This document shows positions 5,535 through 18,131 of a stretch of DNA of 56,174 bases, one piece after another (position 1 is the first letter of the stretch; each line of letters opens with the position of its first letter). The translations under genes and the position numbers were made by a program. The notes beneath the pieces were generated by a model. That model ran no database searches. It was not told where the DNA came from and saw only the letters and a program-made list of their open reading frames with translations. Source of the stretch: an uncultured Bordetella sp. (GTDB lineage Bacteria > Pseudomonadota > Gammaproteobacteria > Burkholderiales > SG8-39); NCBI GenBank assembly GCA_964385505.1, contig CAYLPI010000006.1:1-56174 (forward strand). Reading direction: 5' to 3'.

Positions 5535-7629
<2,095 letters not shown>

Positions 7630-8240: not shown

Positions 8241-8705
8241 TTACGCGCCGGGTGCCGCCGGCCGGTTTTTCCACACCAGCGCGTCCAGCGCCAGCCGGCC
8301 CGGGCCATGCAACAGCGTCACCAGCAGCAGCACCGCCCAGTAGGCGTGCTGCGCCAGCGCCGGCTCGAGGTCTTTGAGCACATGCCAGTAGGCGACAACG
8401 GCCACGGCGTTGAGTATGAACAGCGCCGCCGCGGAAAAACGGCTGGCCAGGCCCAGCGCCAGCAGCACCGGGAACACCAGTTCGCCGAAGGTGCCGAGCG
8501 CGGCAGCCAGCTCAGGCGGCAGCAGCGGCACGTGGTATTCGTCCTCGAACAAGGCGACGGTGTTTTCCCAACTGGCAATCTTGGTCAGGCCGGCGGAGAA
8601 GAAAATCTTTGCCACATAAAGCCGTATGCCGAGGTCGAGCAGCGTGCCGCCGTGGTTCAGCCAGGTGCGCGTATCGTCGAGAAGGACGGCTATTTTTGCG
8701 TTCAT
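8241..8705 (-). CDS. DoxX-family inner-membrane protein (fourth gene of the RiPP operon)
   Basis: MNAKIAVLLDDTRTWLNHGGTLLDLGIRLYVAKIFFSAGLTKIASWENTVALFEDEY... with four predicted TM helices. 52 nt downstream of the DUF2063 gene. Confidence 0.8.
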   Translation of the reverse strand: MNAKIAVLLDDTRTWLNHGGTLLDLGIRLYVAKIFFSAGLTKIASWENTVALFEDEYHVPLLPPELAAALGTFGELVFPVLLALGLASRFSAAALFILNAVAVVAYWHVLKDLEPALAQHAYWAVLLLVTLLHGPGRLALDALVWKNRPAAPGA

Positions 8706-8757
8706 GGTGCTGCTCCTGTTGCGCTCCGGTGCCTGCATCAGGCAGGTTCAGGCAAGT

Positions 8758-9546
8758 TCACGCAAGTGTGAAGTCAATGATCACGCGCTGTGCAACCCAG
8801 CGTTGCAGGGCGGCATCGGGCATGAAACCCGGGTCTGCGGCCGTCGCTGCGGTGAGGGCCGCGCCAAGCGTGTTGCCGCCGGCCAGCGCATTGAGGAAGG
8901 CGGATTCGCCCGCGGCAAGCGCCTCGACCACGACACGCAGCTGTGGACGCAGTACCAGAACCGTCGATGGGCCGGCATCCAGGTCGACGCTGAATTCGCC
9001 GGCGAAGTCGTGCTGGTGCACCTGCCAGATGCGCGCCAGCGGCCAGTCCGATTGCAGCAACGCGCAGGCCGGATGCAGCCACAGGCGCAAATGCGTCAGA
9101 TCGTCTGCGGCAATGGCGGCGAGCCGGCTGCCGTCGAAGGCCGCATGATCGGCGGCGTAGTGGGCGCGCTGCGCCAGCCACTCCATGCGCGCGACGTCGG
9201 CGAGGTAGGGCAATGCCTGCGCCGGTTCGAACGCGGCAAGGAAGTCGCCGAAAGTGTCGCCATATTCGTTGAGGTCGCCGCTGGCAGACGGATGCCGTAG
9301 CGCGTAGGCGCGCGCCAGCCCTTCGAAAAATTCAACACCGGTGATGGTTGCCGTGATCGGATAAATCGCCGCCAGCGCCTTGTGTGCATTGGCGCTGGAG
9401 TTGCCGCGGTAAATGGCGAGGCAACGTTTGATGCGCGCGGGCTCGCCGCGAAACAGCGGCACCGCCCCGGCCATTCCGGTCGCGGCTTTGCCGCCGGAAG
9501 CGAGCGCTGCGGCGAACCCGGACTGGATGGCCGCCAACTCAGACAT
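8758..9546 (-). CDS. DUF2063-family protein (partner subunit of the DUF692 oxidase, BufC/GigC-like)
   Basis: 262-aa ORF (…[19 protein letters not shown]…[11 protein letters not shown]…). Its start overlaps the DUF692 stop by 8 nt. Confidence 0.8.
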
Positions 9547-10393
9547 GTTCGGCCTCCATGCGGGCCGCCGCGCTCGCCGCCTCGCCTAGCAGCACGCCGA
9601 GTTCGGGTACATCGGTGTCCCATTCGATCAGCGTGGGCACCGGCCCGAACAGCGCGAGCGCCGCGTCGTACAGGCACCACACCGCGGGCGCAACCGCCGC
9701 GCCGTGGTCGTCTATCAGCGCGTCGTCCGTGACCAGATGGCCGGCAAGATGGATTTCGGCCACGCTGGCGCGCGGCAGAGCGGCCATGGCGGCCATTGCC
9801 GCCAGTGCGTCGCCGCCGTGGTTGACCTGGTTGATCTGGTTGACGTAGAGATTGTTGACGTCAAGCAGGATGCCGCAACCGGAACGCCGCACGAGTTCGG
9901 ATAAAAACTCGCCCTCGGACATGTCGCTGGCGCGAAACGCCACGTAACTGGATACGTTTTCGATCAGGATGCGCCGCCCCAGTGCGTCCTGTACGCGTTG
10001 TACGCGGGCGTTCATGTGGGCCAGCGCCTCTTCGGTGTGGGGCAATGGCAGCAGGTCGTTGAAGTGGCGGCCGCGGTGCGCACCCCAGCACAGGTGTTCG
10101 GAAACGAGCGCGGGTTCGAAGCGTGATACCAGGCGTTTGAGTTTTGCCAGATGCCGCTCGATGCGCGCATCGTCGTCGGTGCTGGCCGCCGAGCCGAGCG
10201 CGAGTCCGACGCCGTGCAGGCTGAGCGCATGGTTTTGACGCACGTGTTCGAGCACGTGCAAGTCGTAGCCGCCCTCGCCAAAGTAATTTTCACTGTGCAC
10301 CTCAACCCAGGGCACCGGCGGTGTGGTGTCGAGAAAATCGCGGTAATGACGCGCACGCAAGCCGATGCCGGCGCCGTGCAGTTGCGGAGTCAT
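9539..10393 (-). CDS. DUF692-family multinuclear non-heme iron oxidase (MNIO; MbnB/BufB/GigB-like)
   Basis: 284-aa TIM-barrel-type ORF: GIGLRARHY…VEVHSENYF…LSLHGVGL…VSEHLCW…LIENVSSY…[10 protein letters not shown]…EIHLAGH…IDDHG…LIEWD, the conserved metal-ligand pattern. Confidence 0.85.
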
Positions 10394-10479
10394 GTCAGGG
10401 TATGCGGGCGCCGGCCATCCGGACCGGAATTCGATCAGGGTGGTCCGGCGCGCGGGTTCATGAATATGGACGGGAGCGA

Positions 10480-10770
10480 TCAGCCCTTTTTTTCCATTTT
10501 TTTGTCCATCTTGGATGTCAGCTTGCCACCCATTTTTTCGCAGCTACCCTTGGCTGTGTACTTCCATTCATCGGGTGACATGTCCACTTTGGACTGGCCG
10601 GCGCACGAATGCGTGCCTGCTGCGTTGGCGCAGTCGTTCTGGCCGGCTTTGGCGATGCCAAAGCATTTTTCCTTGGCTGCGGCCTTGTCCTGGGCGGTGG
10701 CGGTGCCGGCGGCGGCACCAAGGGCGATCATGCCGGCGAGGGCGGCGCGGATAAGGGTTTGCTGATTCAT
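10480..10770 (-). CDS. DUF2282-family secreted Cys-rich RiPP precursor (bufferin/GigA-like)
   Basis: [26 protein letters not shown]|[70 protein letters not shown]. Sec signal peptide, four Cys in the family spacing, ggagga RBS. Confidence 0.85.
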
Positions 10771-11008
10771 GGTGAATCCTCCAGTCAATTAAGTTAGGTC
10801 GAAAGTCGATGCGGGAAAGCTGTTCCCGAGCTTTGGTCGGCGCTGTTGATGATTCCTTACGCTTTCATTGCCCTCGGCGTCTGGTCGGGGGTGGAAGCCC
10901 GGGTGTTGATATGCCCCGTACTGTGCTGCCGCAAATTGCGTTTCCGGGCCTGGATGTCGCATTTTCATGAGCCGCCGGGAAGGATGCGGCTTCGGCTGTC
11001 GCGCTACG

Positions 11009-11692
11009 CTATACCAGCAGTCCGGGCAGGCCGGCGAGATCTGAAATTTCGGCGTCCGGTGTCGCCGGGATGCGTTCCGGTTGCTGGCCGAGGCGGTTAC
11101 ACCAGACCGCTTTCAGACCGAATGCCTTTGCCGAGAAGGCGTCCCAGGCGTTCGAGGACACAAAACAGATACGCGAGGGGGCGATGTTCAGTCGTTCCGG
11201 TGCGAGGCGGTAAACCGAGGGATGGGGCTTGAAGATGCCCACCTCCTCGACCGACAGCACGGCATCGAACAGGTTTTGCAAGTTCGCAGCATTGATGGCT
11301 GCCTCGAGCATCGCCGGCGTGCCGTTGGAGAGAATCGCGAGTTTTCGGCCGCTCGCCTGCAGGCTACGGAGTGTTGCCGGGACCTCTGGAAAACTGCTCA
11401 GCCCGAGGTATGAATTCATCAAGCTTTCGCGCAGCTCCGGGCTGGATCGCCCGGTTGCGGCCAGTGCAAAATCGAGCGCATCGCCGGTCACCGTCCAGAA
11501 GTCGGCATGGTGTCCGGCCAGCCCCCGCAGCCAGGTATATTGCAGTTGCTTCTGCCGCCAAAGCTCGGAAACGCGCTGCCAGTCATCTCCAAGTTCGCTG
11601 CGCTTGGCGCTTGACGCACTGTTGAAGTCGAACAGCGTGCCATAGGCATCGAAAACGCAGGCCTCTATCCCTTCCAATGCCGGATTACTCAT
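11009..11692 (-). CDS. Type II L-2-haloacid dehalogenase (HAD superfamily)
   Basis: From the ATG at 11690-11692: MSNPALEGIEACVFDAYGTLFDFNS (nucleophile motif DxYGTLxD), ILSNGTP, FVSSNAWD. Confidence 0.8.
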   Translation of the reverse strand: MSNPALEGIEACVFDAYGTLFDFNSASSAKRSELGDDWQRVSELWRQKQLQYTWLRGLAGHHADFWTVTGDALDFALAATGRSSPELRESLMNSYLGLSSFPEVPATLRSLQASGRKLAILSNGTPAMLEAAINAANLQNLFDAVLSVEEVGIFKPHPSVYRLAPERLNIAPSRICFVSSNAWDAFSAKAFGLKAVWCNRLGQQPERIPATPDAEISDLAGLPGLLV

Positions 11693-11756
11693 CGGTACAT
11701 ACTCCAGAGTGGCGCGTCGTTGCTGGCGCAGGTCGCAAGCACGCCGCAGGACATTT

Positions 11757-13853
11757 TCATTGCGAATTATTTTTTTTACGCTTCCTCGCCAGCGCCGGCG
11801 ATTCGGCTGCGGCATACGCGGCCAGCCCGGCCGGGCGATCAAGCGGCACGACCGTATCCATTCTGGTGCCACCCGGCGGTTGCAACGTCGGCGGGAAGAA
11901 CGCAAGTTTTTGCGTCCCGCCGAGCTTGTCTTCGCGTCCGGGGGCAAGGTCGCGCTCGTTCACGCCGCGCGGCGTGGTCGCGACGCCGTTGACGATTTCC
12001 AGGTCGAACCACCAGCGCTTGACGGCGTTGCGCGCGCCGCCGCCCACGTTGTCGTCATGGGCAATCAGTGCCTTGCGCGCCGAGGGTACGTTGATCGACA
12101 GCCACAACAGGCGCTCGGACTCGACAAGGTCCTCGCGGTTATAAGGACAGGTTTTCATGCAGCGCCCGCAGGCCGAGCCCTTCATGTTGGTAAGCCGGTA
12201 TTTGCCGCACTTTTCCACGTCCGGCTTCCAGATCTCGTAGCCGTTGTACATCACCTTGGGACCGAAAGGGATGGCATTGCAGGGACACTCGCGCGCGCAC
12301 TTGAGACACATCTGGCACGTCGCCTGCAGGCCGAAATCGATGGGTTTGTCGGCGATGAGCGGCAGGTCTGTGGTGAAGACGACCGACTTGGAGCGCGGAC
12401 CGATGAAGGGGTTGAGGATGAGTTCGCCGATGCGCGAGAGTTCGCCCAATCCGGCCATCAACACGGCCGGCAGGTGCAGTACTTCGGAGTGGGCGTTGGA
12501 GTGGACGCGCGCCGAATGCCCCATGCGCCGCAGGTGCGCCGCCATTACGCCGGCGAGCATGGCGCCGCGCATGTAACCGCGCATCGATTGTGCGCCGGAA
12601 ATCCAGTCATCGCCCGATGCGCCTTCCATGGTCTCGAAGCCCTGGTCGATGAGCATCACCACTGCATACGGATGGTAGGGCTCGATCGGCTTCCCCTCGT
12701 TCTCATCGTGCGAGTAGTACATCCAGGGTTCGGCCTTGCAGATACCGACCAGATCGGCGCCAAGGTAGTAGCCGAGCGCCTTGATCGCCTCGACGTTCTT
12801 CGCCGGATCCGAGGTGTCACCACCGAAGCCCGTCGGCGCCAGCGGCTCGCGCGTTCCCTGCACCGGCACCATGTTCCGGATCAACGGCGTCATGGCAAAG
12901 GCGAGCGGGTGCTTGACGGCAAACCGTGTGCGTTCGTGCTTTGGTTTTTCACCCAGGTCGCCCGCCAGTGCACGCGTGAACAGGTCGGCCCGCTTGGGCA
13001 CGCGGCGGATTTCCTCCGCAATGATCAGGGTGGTCGGCTCGTCCACACGTTTGATCTTCTCCATTTCGTAGCGGCCCATGTGCACCGGGCGGGACGCCAG
13101 TTCGGCGTCGTGCCATCCGGGGCGCGTGCCCATCCGGCCCATATAGGCATCGCTATCGTGCCAATCGAGTCTGGCTCCGGGGGCGATCGGGGTGTCGGGT
13201 GTGAGCGTGAAATCGGTCGTCACCACGCCCAGCCGAAAGCCGCCGCTTATGTATGGTGCGCGAAGCGCGCCATTCTTGTCGACGACGATGCCGGCGCGCT
13301 GTGCGAGGCGTTCGATTGAAACCGCGGTCGTCCCGGCGGCATGACCCTGCGCCGACCAGCCGAGCGCACGGACATAGCCGGCGAGGACCACCGCAGCCTC
13401 GGCACATCGGAGGTCGGTGCGCGCGGCGTTGGTGCCGCGTATCCAGGCATCGCCGGACTCGCCGGCCCTGGGTTCGCGGCCGAACTCGATCAGGAACACC
13501 AGCGCGTGGGTGTGGTGTGGATGCCCGGTGTCGGTCCAGTCGGTCGGATCAATCGCGCACGTCCCCGCCAGGCTGGCATCCAGAAAATAGGCGGAGGCCT
13601 TGAGGTTTCGTGCACGGATCAGCGGGTCGTCGGGGACCGGCGCCCTGGCGGTCGCGGGTGCGCCAACGAGGTATCTGGCGAAGAGTTCGCGATATTCGAG
13701 CACGGCGCCGTCAATGGCATCAGGACCGGAGGCAACCCCGTCTGTGGGCATCAGTGCATCGCCGACCGGCGCGCATGGCACGCGCTCGATCAGTTCGGTG
13801 GGCAAAATGCCCATGTCAAAGGGGCGATCCTTGCTCGAAAAAAGTCGCGACAT
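11757..13853 (-). CDS. Reductive dehalogenase homologue, cytoplasmic catabolic type (NpRdhA-like architecture)
   Basis: 698 aa. C-terminal CQMCLKCARECPCNAIP plus C-x12-CGRCMKTCPYN (two 4Fe-4S motifs). Internally duplicated Rdh-like core. No RR signal peptide and no adjacent rdhB anchor gene. Confidence 0.65.
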   Translation of the reverse strand: MSRLFSSKDRPFDMGILPTELIERVPCAPVGDALMPTDGVASGPDAIDGAVLEYRELFARYLVGAPATARAPVPDDPLIRARNLKASAYFLDASLAGTCAIDPTDWTDTGHPHHTHALVFLIEFGREPRAGESGDAWIRGTNAARTDLRCAEAAVVLAGYVRALGWSAQGHAAGTTAVSIERLAQRAGIVVDKNGALRAPYISGGFRLGVVTTDFTLTPDTPIAPGARLDWHDSDAYMGRMGTRPGWHDAELASRPVHMGRYEMEKIKRVDEPTTLIIAEEIRRVPKRADLFTRALAGDLGEKPKHERTRFAVKHPLAFAMTPLIRNMVPVQGTREPLAPTGFGGDTSDPAKNVEAIKALGYYLGADLVGICKAEPWMYYSHDENEGKPIEPYHPYAVVMLIDQGFETMEGASGDDWISGAQSMRGYMRGAMLAGVMAAHLRRMGHSARVHSNAHSEVLHLPAVLMAGLGELSRIGELILNPFIGPRSKSVVFTTDLPLIADKPIDFGLQATCQMCLKCARECPCNAIPFGPKVMYNGYEIWKPDVEKCGKYRLTNMKGSACGRCMKTCPYNREDLVESERLLWLSINVPSARKALIAHDDNVGGGARNAVKRWWFDLEIVNGVATTPRGVNERDLAPGREDKLGGTQKLAFFPPTLQPPGGTRMDTVVPLDRPAGLAAYAAAESPALARKRKKNNSQ

Positions 13854-13880
13854 GAATGTCTGCCGATACGAAGGTGCCGG

Positions 13881-14474
13881 CTAAGCCGGCTGGCGCTCGT
13901 GCTTGACCGCGTCCCAGCCGTGCGCGGCGAGGAATTTCTCCCCCACCGCCACCGGTTCGGCCTCGAGCGGGGTGGCGAAGGTGTCGTTCCACCGGTTCAG
14001 AAATCCGAACATGGCGATGACCCCGACAATTTCGACAATCTGGTTTTCGGACCAGTGCTCGCGCATTTGCGCAAACATGGCGTCGGTGACGTCATTGGGC
14101 ACTGCCCCCGCCGCGAGGGCGAAATCCAGCGCGACTCGTTCAGCCGCCGAGTAAAGCGGGCTGGTGTTGTATTCCCAGATTGCAGCCACTTTTGCCTCGT
14201 CCACGCCTTTGTGCAGCGCGCCGCCGGCGGTGTGGGCCATACAGTACTGGCAACCGGCTGCGCGGCTTGCAACAAGGGCGATCAGGCGTCTGAAGCCGAC
14301 GTCCACTTCGCCTTCGGGGTCCCAGACCGCGGCATTCAACTGCATGAACGCTTTCACGAGTTTCGGCTTGCGCTGCATGATGAGCAGGCTGTTGGGCACG
14401 AAGCCCAGGTTCCTGCGTGAAGCTTCGAATACGTCCTGCAGTTCCGGTGAGTGCGCCGCGGGCAGCGGTTGCAT
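13881..14474 (-). CDS. Carboxymuconolactone decarboxylase/AhpD-like peroxidase-related protein
   Basis: From the ATG at 14472-14474: MQPLPAAHSPELQDVF…LVASRAAGCQYCMAHTAG (CxxC-x-H AhpD-core motif). Confidence 0.75.
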   Translation of the reverse strand: MQPLPAAHSPELQDVFEASRRNLGFVPNSLLIMQRKPKLVKAFMQLNAAVWDPEGEVDVGFRRLIALVASRAAGCQYCMAHTAGGALHKGVDEAKVAAIWEYNTSPLYSAAERVALDFALAAGAVPNDVTDAMFAQMREHWSENQIVEIVGVIAMFGFLNRWNDTFATPLEAEPVAVGEKFLAAHGWDAVKHERQPA

Positions 14475-14550
14475 GCGCGGGGTGGGTAACTGTCGGTTGT
14501 TCAATTTGTGTTCCTTGTTCAGGGCGGGTTGTGTGGCGAAACGCCGGCTG

Positions 14551-15078
14551 TCAGGCTTCGCCGCGCGCCGGATAGTTTTTGCTGACGACAAAGTCGATTG
14601 CCTGGACGATTTCATTGAAATGGGGACGGGCAAAAGGCATCGTCGATACTGACGACCAGTACAGCGTGCCGTCGGGCTTGACGAGGAACAGTCCGGGTTC
14701 GGCAAACAGCGCCGGCTCTTCAATGCCGGCCGACGTCGGGCCGCGGCCGGCGGAAATGAACAGGCCCCATTGCCGCGCTGATTCGATGCTGACACCGTAA
14801 CCCACGGTCAGTCCGGACAGGCCCCATTGCGTTTTCGCCTGCTCGGCGCGTTCGGCGCTGTCGGTGCTGGTGACCACGGTGGAGACGCCGCGCTTGTCGA
14901 AATCGCCGATCAGGGTGTTGAGTTCTCCGGTATAGCGCCGGCACTGCGGGCAATGCAGGCCGCGGTAAAACACGATCATTGTGAACGCCTGCGGCGTCTG
15001 CGCTGCAAGAGACCAGCGGCCACCGCCTGTGAGTTCGAATTCCAGAGCGGGTGTGGGTTGTCGTGGTTTGAGGCTCAT
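14551..15078 (-). CDS. Peroxiredoxin-like (AhpC/TSA-redoxin fold) protein
   Basis: 175 aa with MIVFYRGLHCPQCRRY, a thioredoxin-fold CxxC. Start forms an ATGA overlap with the tetR stop. Confidence 0.7.
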   Translation of the reverse strand: MSLKPRQPTPALEFELTGGGRWSLAAQTPQAFTMIVFYRGLHCPQCRRYTGELNTLIGDFDKRGVSTVVTSTDSAERAEQAKTQWGLSGLTVGYGVSIESARQWGLFISAGRGPTSAGIEEPALFAEPGLFLVKPDGTLYWSSVSTMPFARPHFNEIVQAIDFVVSKNYPARGEA

Positions 15079-15755
15079 GAAGGGTTCCTTTTTTCTGGTG
15101 ACCGGTTGCGGGACGGGGTGAAAGGGGTTGCCGGATCAGGCGCGCGCGCCATGGCAAACATGCCGGCATGCGGCGGGCAAACGATGCGCAGCATGACCTG
15201 CGCGATATCGTTCAGCGTAGCGCGATCAGCCTGCGCCTTGCCGATCAGGCGCAGGCCCTGAATGCTGGCGGTCAGAAAGCGCGCGAGCGCCGTCACATCG
15301 GCGTCGGCGGCAATTTCGCCGCGAGCTCTGGCGCGGGTGAGGCCATGGCGGAAAGCCGCCTCTATGCGTCCGAGGCTGCGTCTTACGCGGCTCGAAACAC
15401 CGCGGTTCTGTCTTGCCGCTTCAGCGGCGCAGTTGCCGATAAGGCAGCCGCGCCGTCCCGGTCCGGCAACAATATCCTCTATCATTTGCGTGAGAAATTC
15501 ACGCAGCGCCGAGGCGATCGGCGCCGGCCCGGCCAGTGCCGATTCTATCCGGCTGATCGCGGCGTCCTCATAACGCGCGAGCGCGCGAAGATACATCGCC
15601 TGCTTGCTGCCGAAAGCCGCATAAAGGCTGGAACGGCCCAGCCCCGTGGCATCGCACAAGTCATCGAGGGAAGTCGATTCAAAGCCCTTGCGCCAGAACA
15701 CCTGCATCGCCCGGTTGAGGACGATGTCGGGCTCATATTCAAGAGGACGGGCCAT
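15075..15755 (-). CDS. TetR/AcrR-family transcriptional regulator (first gene of the dehalogenase operon)
   Basis: MARPLEYEPDIVLNRAMQVFWRKGFESTSLDDLCDATGLGRSSLYAAFGSKQAMY, the canonical TetR HTH. Confidence 0.85.
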   Translation of the reverse strand: MARPLEYEPDIVLNRAMQVFWRKGFESTSLDDLCDATGLGRSSLYAAFGSKQAMYLRALARYEDAAISRIESALAGPAPIASALREFLTQMIEDIVAGPGRRGCLIGNCAAEAARQNRGVSSRVRRSLGRIEAAFRHGLTRARARGEIAADADVTALARFLTASIQGLRLIGKAQADRATLNDIAQVMLRIVCPPHAGMFAMARAPDPATPFTPSRNRSPEKRNPS

Positions 15756-15814
15756 GACAGTATTCGTTCCGGATGATTGAACTTGGTTGTGTACTGTATA
15801 GTCCAAAACAAGGA

Positions 15815-16492
15815 ATGGCAATACGCATGTTCAATATTGCGAACTCGGGCAACGGGGCGAAGCTGCTCATGCAGCGCCGCGCCAATGCCCATCCTTGCGT
15901 CAGCGTTGGGAATGGGGGACGGTTGAAGCCTGATGACGACATAAGCGCGGAAATAGCCAACGCCCGCGAGTACCTGTACCGGTTCGCTTTCTGGCAGTTG
16001 CGCAATGCCACATGGGCAGATGACGTGGTGTCAGAAACCCTGGTGGCCGCGCTTGAAGCGAAAGACCGCTTTGCCGGACGCGCCCAGGTCAAGACCTGGC
16101 TGGTGGGGATCCTGAAAAACAAGATAATCGATCATATCCGCCTTGGACGACGGGAGATCGTGAGGCAGTTGCAATCTGAAAGCACGGATGACGAACTCGA
16201 GGCGCTCTTGTTCACCGCTGCCGGCGAGTATCGCGAACCCCGGCACCATTGGGGCGATCCCGAAGCCGCGCTGGGGCGCGGCCAGTTCTTCGCGGTCCTT
16301 GAGGCTTGCATGTCCCGGTTGCCGGACAATCAGGGACGCGTATTCATGATGCGCGAATGGCTGGAACTGTCGACCGAAGAAATCTGTAAGGAATTGCAGA
16401 TTACATCGTCCAATGCCTGGATACTCCTGCACCGTGCGCGTCTGCGCCTGCAAGAGTGCGTGAATATCAACTGGTTCGAGAAAATAAAATGA
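15815..16492 (+). CDS. ECF (group IV sigma-70) RNA polymerase sigma factor
   Basis: Region 2 (YLYRFAFWQLRNATWADDVVSETL…KTWLVGILKNKIIDHIR) and region 4 (VFMMREWLELSTEEICKELQITSSNAWILLHRARLRL). Start is uncertain: ATGs at 15815, 15827 and 15869. Confidence 0.8.
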   Translation: MAIRMFNIANSGNGAKLLMQRRANAHPCVSVGNGGRLKPDDDISAEIANAREYLYRFAFWQLRNATWADDVVSETLVAALEAKDRFAGRAQVKTWLVGILKNKIIDHIRLGRREIVRQLQSESTDDELEALLFTAAGEYREPRHHWGDPEAALGRGQFFAVLEACMSRLPDNQGRVFMMREWLELSTEEICKELQITSSNAWILLHRARLRLQECVNINWFEKIK

Positions 16493-16695
16493 AATTCCCG
16501 ATGCCTTCGTGCCGCGACACGGTGAGAATCATTCTCGCCAGAGAGGACCGCGACCTGTCGTGGCGCGAGCGCCTCGGGCTGCGCGTGCACCTGGTCATTT
16601 GCAGGGCCTGTCCCGGTTTTGAGCGGCGCGTGTTGTTCATGCGCGGCGCACTGGCGCACTGGCGTGCTTTTTCCGCCGAAAAACCGGGTGATTGA
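16489..16695 (+). CDS. Small zinc-binding (ZAS, zf-HC2) anti-sigma factor
   Basis: 68 aa. Its ATG overlaps the sigma stop (ATGA). HLVICRACPGF matches the H-x3-C-x2-C motif. Confidence 0.7.
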   Translation: MKFPMPSCRDTVRIILAREDRDLSWRERLGLRVHLVICRACPGFERRVLFMRGALAHWRAFSAEKPGD

Positions 16696-17306
16696 TTGAT
16701 CCGTACAAACCAGCTCGCCGGCGTGTGTCAACGCATGGGAATGGTGCGGTTCTTACGCTCGCGGCGGGCGTGATATTCGGGCTCGGGTGGGGAACGCTTC
16801 TGGTGACGTTCGCGCCGACCATGGGTGCGAGGCTGGCGTTTGCGACGGCGTGGTGGTTGCGCCGGGCGGTCGCGCCAGCCAGGCGAATGCCGCGGCAGCC
16901 GGCGCGCACGGCGGGCCAGGCGGTGAAACGCATCATCGCCAAGCGTGACGCCGATATTTTTCCCGGTCGCAATGCCGCGGCGCGCCGAGAGCCACTGCGG
17001 GCGCGCAAGCTGATGAACGCATTGTGTGGCCTGCTGCTCCAGTCCCATGTTCCGCAGCGGCGCACGCCGGCGCTGATCGGCTGCGCTGATGGTGACGCGC
17101 TGCTGGAGCGGGGTCCGGTCGCGTTGCGCGGCCAATGGGTGTCGCGCTGGGAGGACAGGATAGTCAGGCGCTTGATGGCTCGCTACCGGTCCGTTGCGCT
17201 TCGTCCTCTATAATCCGCCCTGCGCATTACGCTTGACGGTCGGCGCTTGACGCCCGGCGTTTGGCGCTGCGCGCCGCCGAGTCCCCTTATTATCCGGCCC
17301 ACCACC

Positions 17307-18131
17307 ATGGATATCCCTGTTCTTGTCAAAGCGCTCATTCTCGGCATTGTTGAGGGGCTGACCGAGTTCCTGCCTGTTTCCTCCACCGGCCATCTGATTC
17401 TCGCCGGCGACCTGCTCGATTTCAACGACGAGCGCGGCAAGCTGTTCGAGATCGTCATCCAGTGCGGGGCCATTCTGGCGGTGTGCTGGGAATATCGCGC
17501 CAAGATTTTCGCCGTGGTTTCCGGACTCGGGTCGGACCGGGCGGCACAGCGCTTTGCGCTGAACATCGCCATCGCTTTCATGCCGCTCGCGGTGCTGGGC
17601 CTGGCTTTCGGCAAGGCCATCAAGGCCCATCTTTTTCAGCCGGTGCCGGTGGCGCTGGCCTTTATCGTCGGCGGCTTCATCATTCTCTGGGCGGAGAAAC
17701 GCAAGCACGAAGTGAGGGTGCACAGCGTCGATGACATCGGCTGGCGCGATGCGCTCAAGCTGGGTCTTGCCCAGGCGCTGGCACTGATTCCGGGCACCTC
17801 GCGCTCCGGCGCCACCATCATCGGCGGCCTGTTCTTCGGCCTCTCGCGCAAGGCCTCGACCGAGTTCTCGTTTTTTCTCGCCATCCCGACGCTGTTTGCC
17901 GCAACCGCGTACCAGTTGTACAAGGAGCGGGCCTTGTTATCGGTCGATGACCTTGGCATCTGGGCGGTGGGATTTGCCTCGGCGTTTGCCTCCGCCTTTC
18001 TCTGCGTGAGATGGTTGTTGCGCTATATCTCCACCCATGACTTCACGATTTTTGCCTGGTACCGGATCGCATTTGGCGTGGTGGTGTTGCTCACCGCATG
18101 GACCGGCGCCGTGAACTGGACTGCGGGATAG
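17307..18131 (+). CDS. uppP: Undecaprenyl-diphosphate phosphatase
   Basis: [37 protein letters not shown]… and [13 protein letters not shown] motifs. Confidence 0.95.

Follow-up and report, generated by a model that had tools for sequence, protein, structure and literature searches.

A TetR-Prx-CMD gene core with recurrent dehalogenase additions in a predicted operon of an uncultured Bordetella sp.

Our analysis of a 56,174-nucleotide stretch of DNA from an uncultured Bordetella sp. (contig CAYLPI010000006.1 of assembly GCA_964385505.1; the whole stretch is referred to as the window) revealed that three genes of a predicted five-gene operon belong to a core that is widespread in other genomes. 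The operon lies on the minus strand at positions 11,009 to 15,755 and encodes, in order of transcription, a TetR regulator (TetR), a peroxiredoxin-like protein (Prx-like), a CMD-fold protein (CMD), a reductive dehalogenase homologue (RdhA) and a haloacid dehalogenase (HAD). The TetR-Prx-CMD core is usually found without RdhA in a genomic island of Burkholderiales and relatives that carries an extracytoplasmic function (ECF) sigma factor and bufferin genes, and dehalogenases of three unrelated families (RdhA, type II HAD or HAD-II, and DehI) are optional, recurrent additions to it. One RdhA subclade is habitually tied to this ECF-sigma/bufferin island. The family of every protein is known already, and RdhA is a straightforward orthologue of NpRdhA. 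The core with its Bmp8-like CMD, its membership in the island and the repeated addition of dehalogenases with different mechanisms appear to be undescribed, and in the literature searched we found no described association of RdhA with ECF sigma factors and bufferins or with CMD and Prx proteins. The initial annotation of this DNA overlooked the Bmp8 likeness of CMD and the autonomous, widespread TetR-Prx-CMD module.

15787-15821, minus strand: promoter with overlapping operator; an imperfect palindrome, TTTTGGACTATACAGTACACAA, at 15808-15787 overlaps the -10 hexamer
15075-15755, minus strand: TetR gene, 226 aa; Pfam TetR_N and TetR_C_13
14551-15078, minus strand: Prx-like gene, 175 aa; HCPQC motif; AhpC-TSA/Redoxin
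13881-14474, minus strand: CMD-like gene, 197 aa; GCQYCMAH motif; PF02627, TIGR01926
11757-13853, minus strand: RdhA gene, 698 aa; TIGR02486
11009-11692, minus strand: HAD gene, 227 aa; DAYGTLFD motif; TIGR01428

The coordinates of the open reading frames (ORFs) confirmed the layout given in the initial annotation, with five minus-strand genes of which Prx-like starts within a 4-nt ATGA overlap with the TetR stop, followed by gaps of 76, 27 and 64 nt towards HAD, and profile searches upheld all five of its family assignments. The same five genes were called independently on an identical JGI metagenome contig, where the flanks likewise held genes for the ECF sigma factor and its zf-HC2 anti-sigma and for BufA1, MNIO, HvfC_N and DoxX. 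A promoter scan placed a sigma-70-like promoter (TTGCCA-17-TACAGT, 15821-15793) before TetR, and a promoter/terminator scan of the operon found no terminator-like sites between the five genes, which are predicted to form one TetR-repressed, sigma-70-driven operon. The GC content of the operon (0.61-0.65) was not distinct from that of the remaining window and thus gave no signal of horizontal transfer. A ferredoxin/reductase partner for RdhA at the locus was likewise rejected: the window holds no ferredoxin-type Cys motif outside RdhA itself, and the gene calls on the JGI contig gave no RdhB-like or reductase gene within 10 kb on either side of RdhA. The earlier statement that ferredoxin, flavin reductase and RdhB are not encoded nearby therefore stands.

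Neighbourhoods of the core and its dehalogenases

Gene neighbourhoods were compared from three anchor genes. The RdhA-anchored sample comprised 80 genome loci with orthologues of 61-83% identity (81 loci with the window), the CMD-anchored sample 80 metagenome loci with homologues of 70-81% identity, and the Prx-anchored sample close homologues of Prx in eight independent contexts; individual loci are given as L numbers. The sampled loci are top similarity matches, many of them on contigs from metagenomes or metagenome-assembled genomes with short flanks, and their ORFs were called mechanically.

Taken together, the three anchors showed TetR-Prx-CMD to be the stable unit. CMD was adjacent to Prx-like in all eight Prx contexts, putative selenocysteine (Sec) forms included, and TetR was located upstream in seven of them. 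The complete core or its Prx-CMD part was found without RdhA in L085, L088, L090, L166, L171-174 and others, and L173 is a further case of island membership for Prx-CMD. Among the CMD loci, the gene directly upstream encoded the anti-sigma factor NrsF in 29 and an ECF sigma factor in 17 (with 7 more from a second cluster of sigma-like ORFs), and 15 loci had bufferin genes. Prx-like was adjacent to CMD in 15 of these loci, the order TetR-Prx-CMD was complete in three, HAD-II was encoded near CMD/Prx in four (L085, L093, L103, L152), and RdhA followed downstream in one. Recurrent extras in the Prx contexts are genes for glutathione S-transferase (GST; YfcG-like), DUF302, OsmC, old yellow enzyme (OYE), glyoxalase, MerR/MerC and copper ATPase. 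DUF302 is common in operons of the form TetR-Prx-(DUF302)-CMD (L169:6561-7010, L166:7256-7717, L175:7522-7962), and its sole NCBIfam match, at 125 bits and below cutoff, covered the C-terminal portion of a model for a CrcB fluoride-exporter fusion.

RdhA was linked to the sigma/bufferin genes in at least four arrangements among the 81 loci. Within 7 kb of RdhA we found Prx in 11 loci and CMD in 6; HAD-II and bufferin genes were present in 7 loci each, and the ECF-sigma family of the window in 9. The proximity to an ECF sigma factor and a metal/oxidant RiPP (ribosomally synthesised and post-translationally modified peptide) that the initial annotation had pointed out is thus not an accident of this window. 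The same sigma family adjoins RdhA in L010, L024, L027, L028, L035, L054 and L079; in L019 it is divergent from bufA. RdhA comes directly after sigF-nrsF in L027 and after sigF-nrsF-Trx-like-CcdA-like in L010, and in other genomes CMD or RdhA is co-directional with sigF-nrsF. Among the conserved neighbours upstream of RdhA and on its strand, Prx-like was the most frequent (11 of 81 loci, in three subclades), and the commonest neighbours overall were solute-binding proteins of the Bug/TctC type (23 of 81).

A neighbour-joining tree showed the island links to be concentrated in one RdhA subclade of about 20 loci, 11 of which keep at least one island gene, with independent links to Prx or HAD-II in Limnohabitans and Rubrivivax-type RdhA clades. 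In five Limnohabitans-type loci (L040, L045, L046, L050, L051) RdhA (about 68% identity) has as neighbours one or two GST genes and HAD-II (TIGR01428, 197 bits), and directly upstream of RdhA two of them (L040 and L045) carry a Prx-like gene, an arrangement independent of that in the window. The NpRdhA clade carries LysR and ferredoxin genes in place of the island genes. Ferredoxin-like ORFs of at least 90 aa occurred near RdhA only in L006, L063, L068 and L072, a count that shorter ones would escape.

Where dehalogenases join the core, they do so in varied arrangements. RdhA comes after CMD in the window and in L001, L019 (as Prx-CMD-RdhA), L024, L078, L133, L167/168 and L175. The layout of the window is found in L167/168 with TctC replacing HAD, and L175 reads TetR-Prx-DUF302-CMD-RdhA(73%)-OsmC. 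In L169/170 an RdhA-like protein of 41% identity (TIGR02486, 198 bits), a 396-aa protein, HAD-II (62-67%) and CMD are encoded in this order, divergent from TetR-Prx-DUF302 and adjoining nrsF-sigma and bufABCD. The third dehalogenase family was found in L164, near CMD, Prx-like, a copper P-type ATPase, a MerR regulator and an HMA chaperone:

L164:757-1635: DehI-family gene (PF10778, group I alpha-haloacid dehalogenase; 39.6 bits vs a cutoff of 28.9)

The co-occurrence of RdhA, Prx, CMD and HAD, which the initial annotation had put forward as a check, therefore has a divided outcome, in that the complete five-gene set is not conserved and its sub-associations recur in several arrangements.

Proteins and operator of the operon

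CMD has thousands of close homologues and matched PF02627 (E 4e-14) and the 'peroxidase-related enzyme' model TIGR01926 (85.8 bits vs a cutoff of 81.8). Its closest solved relative is Bmp8 (6OHI, E 8.6e-33 vs 5.8e-13 for the next match), to which it aligned over its full length in phmmer (117 bits, residues 2-177 aligned). The motif GCQYCMAH was aligned to GCMYCKSH of Bmp8 with C-x-Y-C-x-x-H conserved, and the Cys mutated in 6OHJ corresponds to the first Cys of the CMD motif. The spacing is CxxC-x2-H and not CxxC-x3-H as in AhpD; 2PRR and similar generic relatives share the AhpD spacing, with one more residue separating the His from the second Cys. With 17.4 bits CMD stayed under the cutoff of 27.8 for the AhpD core domain TIGR00778 and is not a canonical AhpD. 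Bmp8 has been described as a thiol-dependent reductive debrominase acting on tetrabromopyrrole in the marine bmp pathway (PMC5577590, PMC6797604). Because of its likeness to Bmp8, CMD is a candidate third, thiol-dependent dehalogenase, and the operon may hold three dehalogenation chemistries (RdhA, HAD and CMD). The two proteins have the CMD/AhpD fold, their length and the C-x-Y-C-x-x-H motif in common, but Bmp8 sits in a biosynthetic cluster for brominated pyrroles together with halogenases, whereas CMD sits in a stress island, and no halogenase was found among the genes around it (TetR, Prx-like, RdhA, HAD, sigma factor and bufferin genes). They also differ in that CMD passes TIGR01926, while the aligned Bmp8 fragment (residues 13-187) reached only 43.6 bits.

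Some CMD orthologues (65-69% identity) have an in-frame TGA at the codon of the second Cys (GCHY-TGA-MAH), which in the window is TGT (Cys):

L171:7558-8172, L172:3689-4303 and L173:7583-8197: TGA-containing CMD orthologues; GC-rich hairpin about 15 nt downstream, dG -16.6 to -17.7

The TGA codon and the hairpin are consistent with selenocysteine, and a Sec/Cys exchange at this position would therefore mark the redox centre of CMD. A GRDB-family gene is also present in L171-L173, as is a second CMD paralogue. L171 further encodes, a few kb from its TetR-TctC-Prx-CMD(Sec) cluster, a DsbD-like thiol-disulfide protein and a 126-aa T4_deiodinase protein (PF00837, L171:2000-2380); the iodothyronine-deiodinase family is another thioredoxin-fold family with a precedent for reductive dehalogenation. 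In L001, the closest genome relative, the slot of the window HAD directly after RdhA is occupied by a fusion of a pyridine-nucleotide-disulfide oxidoreductase with SelD (L001:12189-14486; TIGR03169 and TIGR00476, 765 aa). The same fusion occurs in L164 (10650-12528) near Prx, CMD and copper ATPase genes, and the SelD fusions therefore link the island to selenium metabolism.

Prx-like matched AhpC-TSA in Pfam (E 1e-12) and has more than 6000 homologues, many of them 75-82% identical. Its AlphaFold model shows a peroxiredoxin fold with good confidence (pLDDT 83.8) and gave BCP/PrxQ/Prx6 as best Foldseek matches, with a TM score of about 0.7 and 14-23% identity. Canonical peroxiredoxins have the peroxidatic motif PxxxT/SxxC plus a conserved Arg. 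Prx-like does not match this motif; inspection of its FYRGLHCPQC stretch against the published consensus showed an Arg where the motif has Pro, and the first Cys where it has Thr/Ser. Since a CxxC replaces Thr-x-x-Cys, the protein looks like a thiol-disulfide oxidoreductase. A deiodinase-like dehalogenase was considered and rejected, as there was no T4_deiodinase match in Pfam and the best Foldseek matches were ordinary peroxiredoxins. The adjacency of genes for a Prx-fold protein and a CMD-fold CxxC protein resembles the AhpC/AhpD pair, and an association with oxidant/halogen stress fits the published data on RclX (PMC7950407). Unlike these systems, the window has a Prx-like protein with CxxC in place of PxxxT/SxxC, a CMD of the 200-aa TIGR01926 type with CxxC-x2-H where RclX and AhpD are of the short type, and TetR as regulator instead of RclR or OxyR.

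RdhA matched the reductive dehalogenase model TIGR02486 (167.7 bits vs a cutoff of 160.35) and, much more strongly, NpRdhA (4RAS/6ZXU; 1024 bits), with residues 3-696 aligned to residues 2-696 of 4RAS and a tblastn identity of about 65% to the N. pacificus locus (L068). Two [4Fe-4S] motifs are present, CQMCLKCAREC (C-x2-C-x2-C-x3-C) at residue 513 and CGRCMKTC (C-x2-C-x3-C) at residue 562. The alignment showed that the NpRdhA residues S422, M423, Y426, K488, R552 and F310 are kept. S422, Y426, K488 and R552 have been described as the residues for binding of the substrate hydroxyl and for proton donation (PMC7565698); their counterparts S423, Y427, K489 and R553 were invariant across 74 aligned orthologues. 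The pocket substitutions F290L, P311A, A419G and K307R relative to NpRdhA are common to most Burkholderiales orthologues, and the first three of them predict a substrate of the ortho-halophenol type in a somewhat larger or different pocket. The public gene call begins at Met14 (685 aa), but the N-terminus MxRLFSNRDRPFDMG is conserved in orthologues and NpRdhA, and because the 13 upstream residues, MSRLFSSKDRPFD, belong to it, the 698-aa start is more likely. Judged from these alignments, RdhA is a full-length NpRdhA orthologue of the non-respiratory type with intact catalytic residues. It is collinear with NpRdhA at about 700 aa, lacks a fused reductase domain, and has no twin-arginine motif of a twin-arginine translocation (TAT) signal in its N-terminus MSRLFSSKDRPF. 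Respiratory rdh features (RdhB anchor, TAT leader, RdhC/K/T accessory genes) were absent from the operon and its flanks, in agreement with the non-respiratory, NpRdhA-type character assigned earlier. The two loci differ in their other genes. That of NpRdhA has a ferredoxin reductase, two ferredoxins (PMC10463259) and a LysR gene, whereas RdhA in the window is surrounded by TetR, Prx-like, CMD, HAD and the ECF-sigma/bufferin island. The cognate ferredoxin system of NpRdhA did not reconstitute its activity in vitro (PMC10463259).

HAD scored 210.4 bits with the type II HAD equivalog TIGR01428 (cutoff 125.4) and matched the haloacid dehalogenases DehIVa (2NO4, E 4e-54) and L-DEX YL (1JUD, E 3e-50). 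Its motifs FDAYGTL with the nucleophile Asp, WRQKQLQYTWLR, LSNG, FKPHPSVY and SSNAWD aligned with both structures and contain the established catalytic set of L-DEX YL, namely the nucleophile Asp with Thr, Arg, Ser, Lys, Tyr, Ser, Asn and Asp. On these matches, HAD is a type II L-2-haloacid dehalogenase.

The best characterised solved relative of TetR is CifR (6NSN; 78.5 bits, residues 2-189). NemR was tried as the closest regulator and rejected, as the PDB matches with E<=0.001 did not include it; the likeness to the nemR/nemA-gloA system consists in the OYE and glyoxalase genes added in related loci. Like CifR, which regulates cif, TetR retains a Gly-Cys pair (RRGCLIGN). In CifR this pair (Cys107) is required for the response to epoxide (epibromohydrin) and N-ethylmaleimide, and 52% of the sequences of the TetR subfamily have it (PMC10827105). 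As it is common in the subfamily, the pair is a lead and not a proof. The candidate TetR-bound element is GGACTATACAGTAC. An element GGACT(A/G)TA(C/T)AGT(A/C)C was present upstream of every orthologous TetR gene examined (n=10), as a perfect palindrome in L024 (TTCTGGACTGTACAGTCCAGAA), and both operator and TetR are also conserved in loci without any dehalogenase. The palindrome fits an autoregulated TetR operator.

A possible detoxification function and its alternatives

The reading we favour, to which we give about an even chance, is that the operon encodes a detoxification cassette, with enzymes acting in parallel on small molecules that are halogenated or electrophilic, and not a respiratory chain. 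In such a cassette an electrophile or oxidant would modify the conserved Cys of TetR, which would then leave its palindromic operator. The CxxC of CMD would carry out a thiol-dependent reduction, possibly by halophilic attack as in Bmp8, and might be recycled by the CxxC of the adjacent Prx-fold protein. Independently, RdhA would strip ortho-halogens from phenolics with electrons from housekeeping ferredoxin or flavodoxin encoded elsewhere, and HAD would hydrolyse 2-haloalkanoates. The two dehalogenases may have been added downstream of the TetR-Prx-CMD core as a lineage-specific extension. A cassette of this kind would bear on the physiological role of oxygen-tolerant, non-respiratory RdhA, on its partners and natural substrates, and on the function of the very abundant CMD-fold proteins of TIGR01926.

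Several observations weigh against this reading. The four genes TetR-Prx-CMD-RdhA stand together in only four of the 81 RdhA loci (window, L001, L024, L078), and HAD takes its downstream position in the window alone. CMD homologues of 70-76% identity are mostly found without RdhA, which argues for a function of CMD that is independent of RdhA. The counts themselves are not phylogenetically independent, because the loci are top matches and many lie on contigs of metagenomes or metagenome-assembled genomes. Bmp8 shares only partial sequence identity with CMD (the 117-bit match) and serves a biosynthetic cluster, and CMD passes the generic model TIGR01926, so that CMD might reduce peroxides or disulfides and have no halogen chemistry. 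Co-regulation with the bufferin genes also found no support, as a scan of the window gave no copy of the bufferin promoter motif GTAAGG-N16-GACCAA upstream of TetR, Prx, CMD, RdhA or HAD. Since no ECF motif precedes the five genes, operon and bufABCD are separate units under different regulators here.

A broader and rather doubtful proposal would combine the sigma/bufferin island, TetR-Prx-CMD and the optional RdhA, HAD or DehI into a defence and repair system against reactive halogens. Bufferin would limit copper-catalysed damage, and the Bmp8-like thiol/selenol enzyme, recycled by Prx, would take electrophilic halogen off N- or C-halogenated metabolites. RdhA would dehalogenate halophenolic damage products (halotyrosine, halo-hydroxybenzoates), and HAD or DehI would remove haloacids. 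The AhpD-like protein RclX shields P. aeruginosa from HOCl (hypochlorous acid) and from HOSCN (hypothiocyanous acid; PMC7950407), genes for CMD and OsmC proteins are among the most HOCl-induced ones in B. cenocepacia, and RclA ties the toxicity of HOCl to copper (PMC7464077). The possible role in removing hypohalous-acid damage that the initial annotation had suggested is consistent with our data and gains plausibility from the protection by RclX and the link between HOCl and copper via RclA. The broader proposal combines these precedents with the repeated recruitment of RdhA, HAD-II and DehI to a Prx-CMD core beside an operon for a copper-chelating RiPP. If true, the proposal would give a natural role to oxygen-tolerant RdhAs and the TIGR01926 family. 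The picture drawn from this locus and its relatives, if borne out, would link metal/oxidant stress to biological dehalogenation and extend thiol- or selenol-based dehalogenation beyond Bmp8 and the deiodinases.

The remaining explanations differ in what they make of the two thiol proteins and the two dehalogenases. Prx-like and CMD could be physiological electron-transfer or reactivation partners of RdhA, as the initial annotation had proposed. The window encodes no ferredoxin, flavin reductase or RdhB, Prx-like is the leading upstream neighbour of RdhA, and NpRdhA could not be reconstituted with its own ferredoxins. However, there is no Prx within 7 kb in 70 of the 81 RdhA loci and no CMD in 75, and Prx and CMD homologues of more than 70% identity occur overwhelmingly without RdhA (RdhA at one of 80 CMD loci). 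By established redox chemistry, the dithiol/disulfide couple of a CxxC motif lies at about -120 to -270 mV and is too oxidising to drive [4Fe-4S] clusters or Co(II)/Co(I), whose potentials are about -350 mV or lower. Because the gene sets are distributed largely independently and dithiol couples are too oxidising, an electron relay to RdhA is highly improbable, and the neighbourhood counts speak against the earlier proposal. Alternatively, Prx-CMD might be a generic AhpC/AhpD-like pair for peroxide or disulfide stress within a metal-stress island, with RdhA and HAD as unrelated catabolic passengers that landed in a recombination-prone island, which we regard as possible though unlikely. The passing score of CMD with the 'peroxidase-related' TIGR01926 agrees with this, as do its usual partners (sigF-nrsF, bufferin genes, OsmC, GST, DUF302, OYE, MerR and copper ATPase), a very fluid island gene order, and the C. 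crescentus sigF regulon, which responds to Cr and Cd and not to peroxides (PMC3511200). Mere passengers are harder to reconcile with RdhA (two clades, 41% identity), HAD-II and DehI joining the module repeatedly and in varied arrangements, with about half of the loci in one RdhA subclade keeping at least one island gene despite rearrangement, and with RdhA in the slot directly downstream of sigF-nrsF (L027, L010). Nor do the two proteins look like a generic pair, as Prx-like is without the canonical Pro/Thr and CMD has CxxC-x2-H where AhpD has CxxC-x3-H.

The operon could finally be a plain xenobiotic catabolic one for growth on a halogenated aromatic acid (cf. bromoxynil, 3,5-dibromo-4-hydroxybenzoate), with a substrate-sensing TetR and an irrelevant proximity to bufferin genes. 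RdhA does retain all substrate-hydroxyl and proton-donor residues of NpRdhA, control by TetR is typical for catabolic operons, and the Bug/TctC-type genes that are the commonest RdhA neighbours (23 of 81) would suit such a role. Against this, the gene calls showed no ring-cleavage, hydroxylase, CoA-ligase or transporter genes in or beside the operon, and operator and TetR are conserved at loci without a dehalogenase. To our knowledge, 2-haloalkanoates, the substrates of HAD-II, are not intermediates of halophenol breakdown, which also counts against a catabolic operon, and we consider it improbable.

The flanking ECF-sigma/bufferin island

The operon is enclosed by the divergent sigma factor gene on one side and the bufferin genes on the other:

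16489-16695, plus strand: anti-sigma gene, 68-aa zf-HC2 protein
15827-16492, plus strand: ECF sigma gene, divergent from the operon; TIGR02943/PRK12520 type
10833-10860, minus strand: ECF-type bufferin promoter GTAAGG-N16-GACCAA, 12/12 match; separate transcription unit downstream of HAD
10480-10770, minus strand: bufA; Pfam BufA1
9539-10393, minus strand: bufB; MNIO, Pfam MbnB_TglH_ChrH
8758-9546, minus strand: bufC; DUF2063/HvfC_N
8241-8705, minus strand: DoxX gene; Pfam DoxX

The Pfam matches of the bufferin operon at 8241-10770 (PF10048, PF05114, PF09836, PF07681) make up a complete Buf1 cluster. Bufferins are copper-chelating RiPPs of the copper-stress response, and the published surveys consulted contain no mention of CMD, Prx or dehalogenase neighbours (PMC11626156, PMC12452194). 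As in the Caulobacter sigF/nrsF Buf1 system, the order is bufA1-MNIO-DUF2063-DoxX, ECF sigma and anti-sigma genes are adjacent, and an ECF-type promoter precedes bufA. The window differs from Caulobacter in its 68-aa zf-HC2 anti-sigma in place of NrsF, in the five extra genes between the sigma gene and bufA, and in the promoter, GTAAGG-N16-GACCAA vs the published sigF motif GTAACC-N16-CGAA (PMC3511200). GTAAGG-N16-GACCAA occupies a matching position upstream of bufA in L001, L019, L020, L028 and L054 and, in a looser form, in L033; its position is conserved across beta-type loci, and alpha-type loci have GTAACC-N16-CGAA instead.

Within the window, the motif matched at 12/12 only upstream of bufA, and at 11/12 once in the sigma gene and once in thiC. 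The match in the 3' part of the sigma gene (GTAAGG-N16-GTCCAA, 16386-16413, plus strand) lies about 75 nt before the anti-sigma start and could be an internal promoter or a chance match. A scan of the 80 RdhA loci at >=10/12 gave 52 matches, no more than expected by chance from scaled window shuffles, and was too noisy to be of use. Downstream of the anti-sigma gene on the plus strand follow a 162-aa arginine-rich ORF (16725-17213), whose weak VTT/DedA match of 21 bits is below cutoff, and the gene of a BacA/UppP undecaprenyl-diphosphatase (17247-18131), and VTT/DedA-Pyr_redox flavoprotein fusions recur in the related islands of L166 and L167. On the other side of the bufferin genes, a thiamine pyrophosphate (TPP) riboswitch (RF00059; 5532-5638, plus strand; 62.7 bits, gathering cutoff 54.3) lies upstream of thiC, whose ORF spans 5626-7629 on the plus strand with the true start probably downstream of the TPP aptamer.

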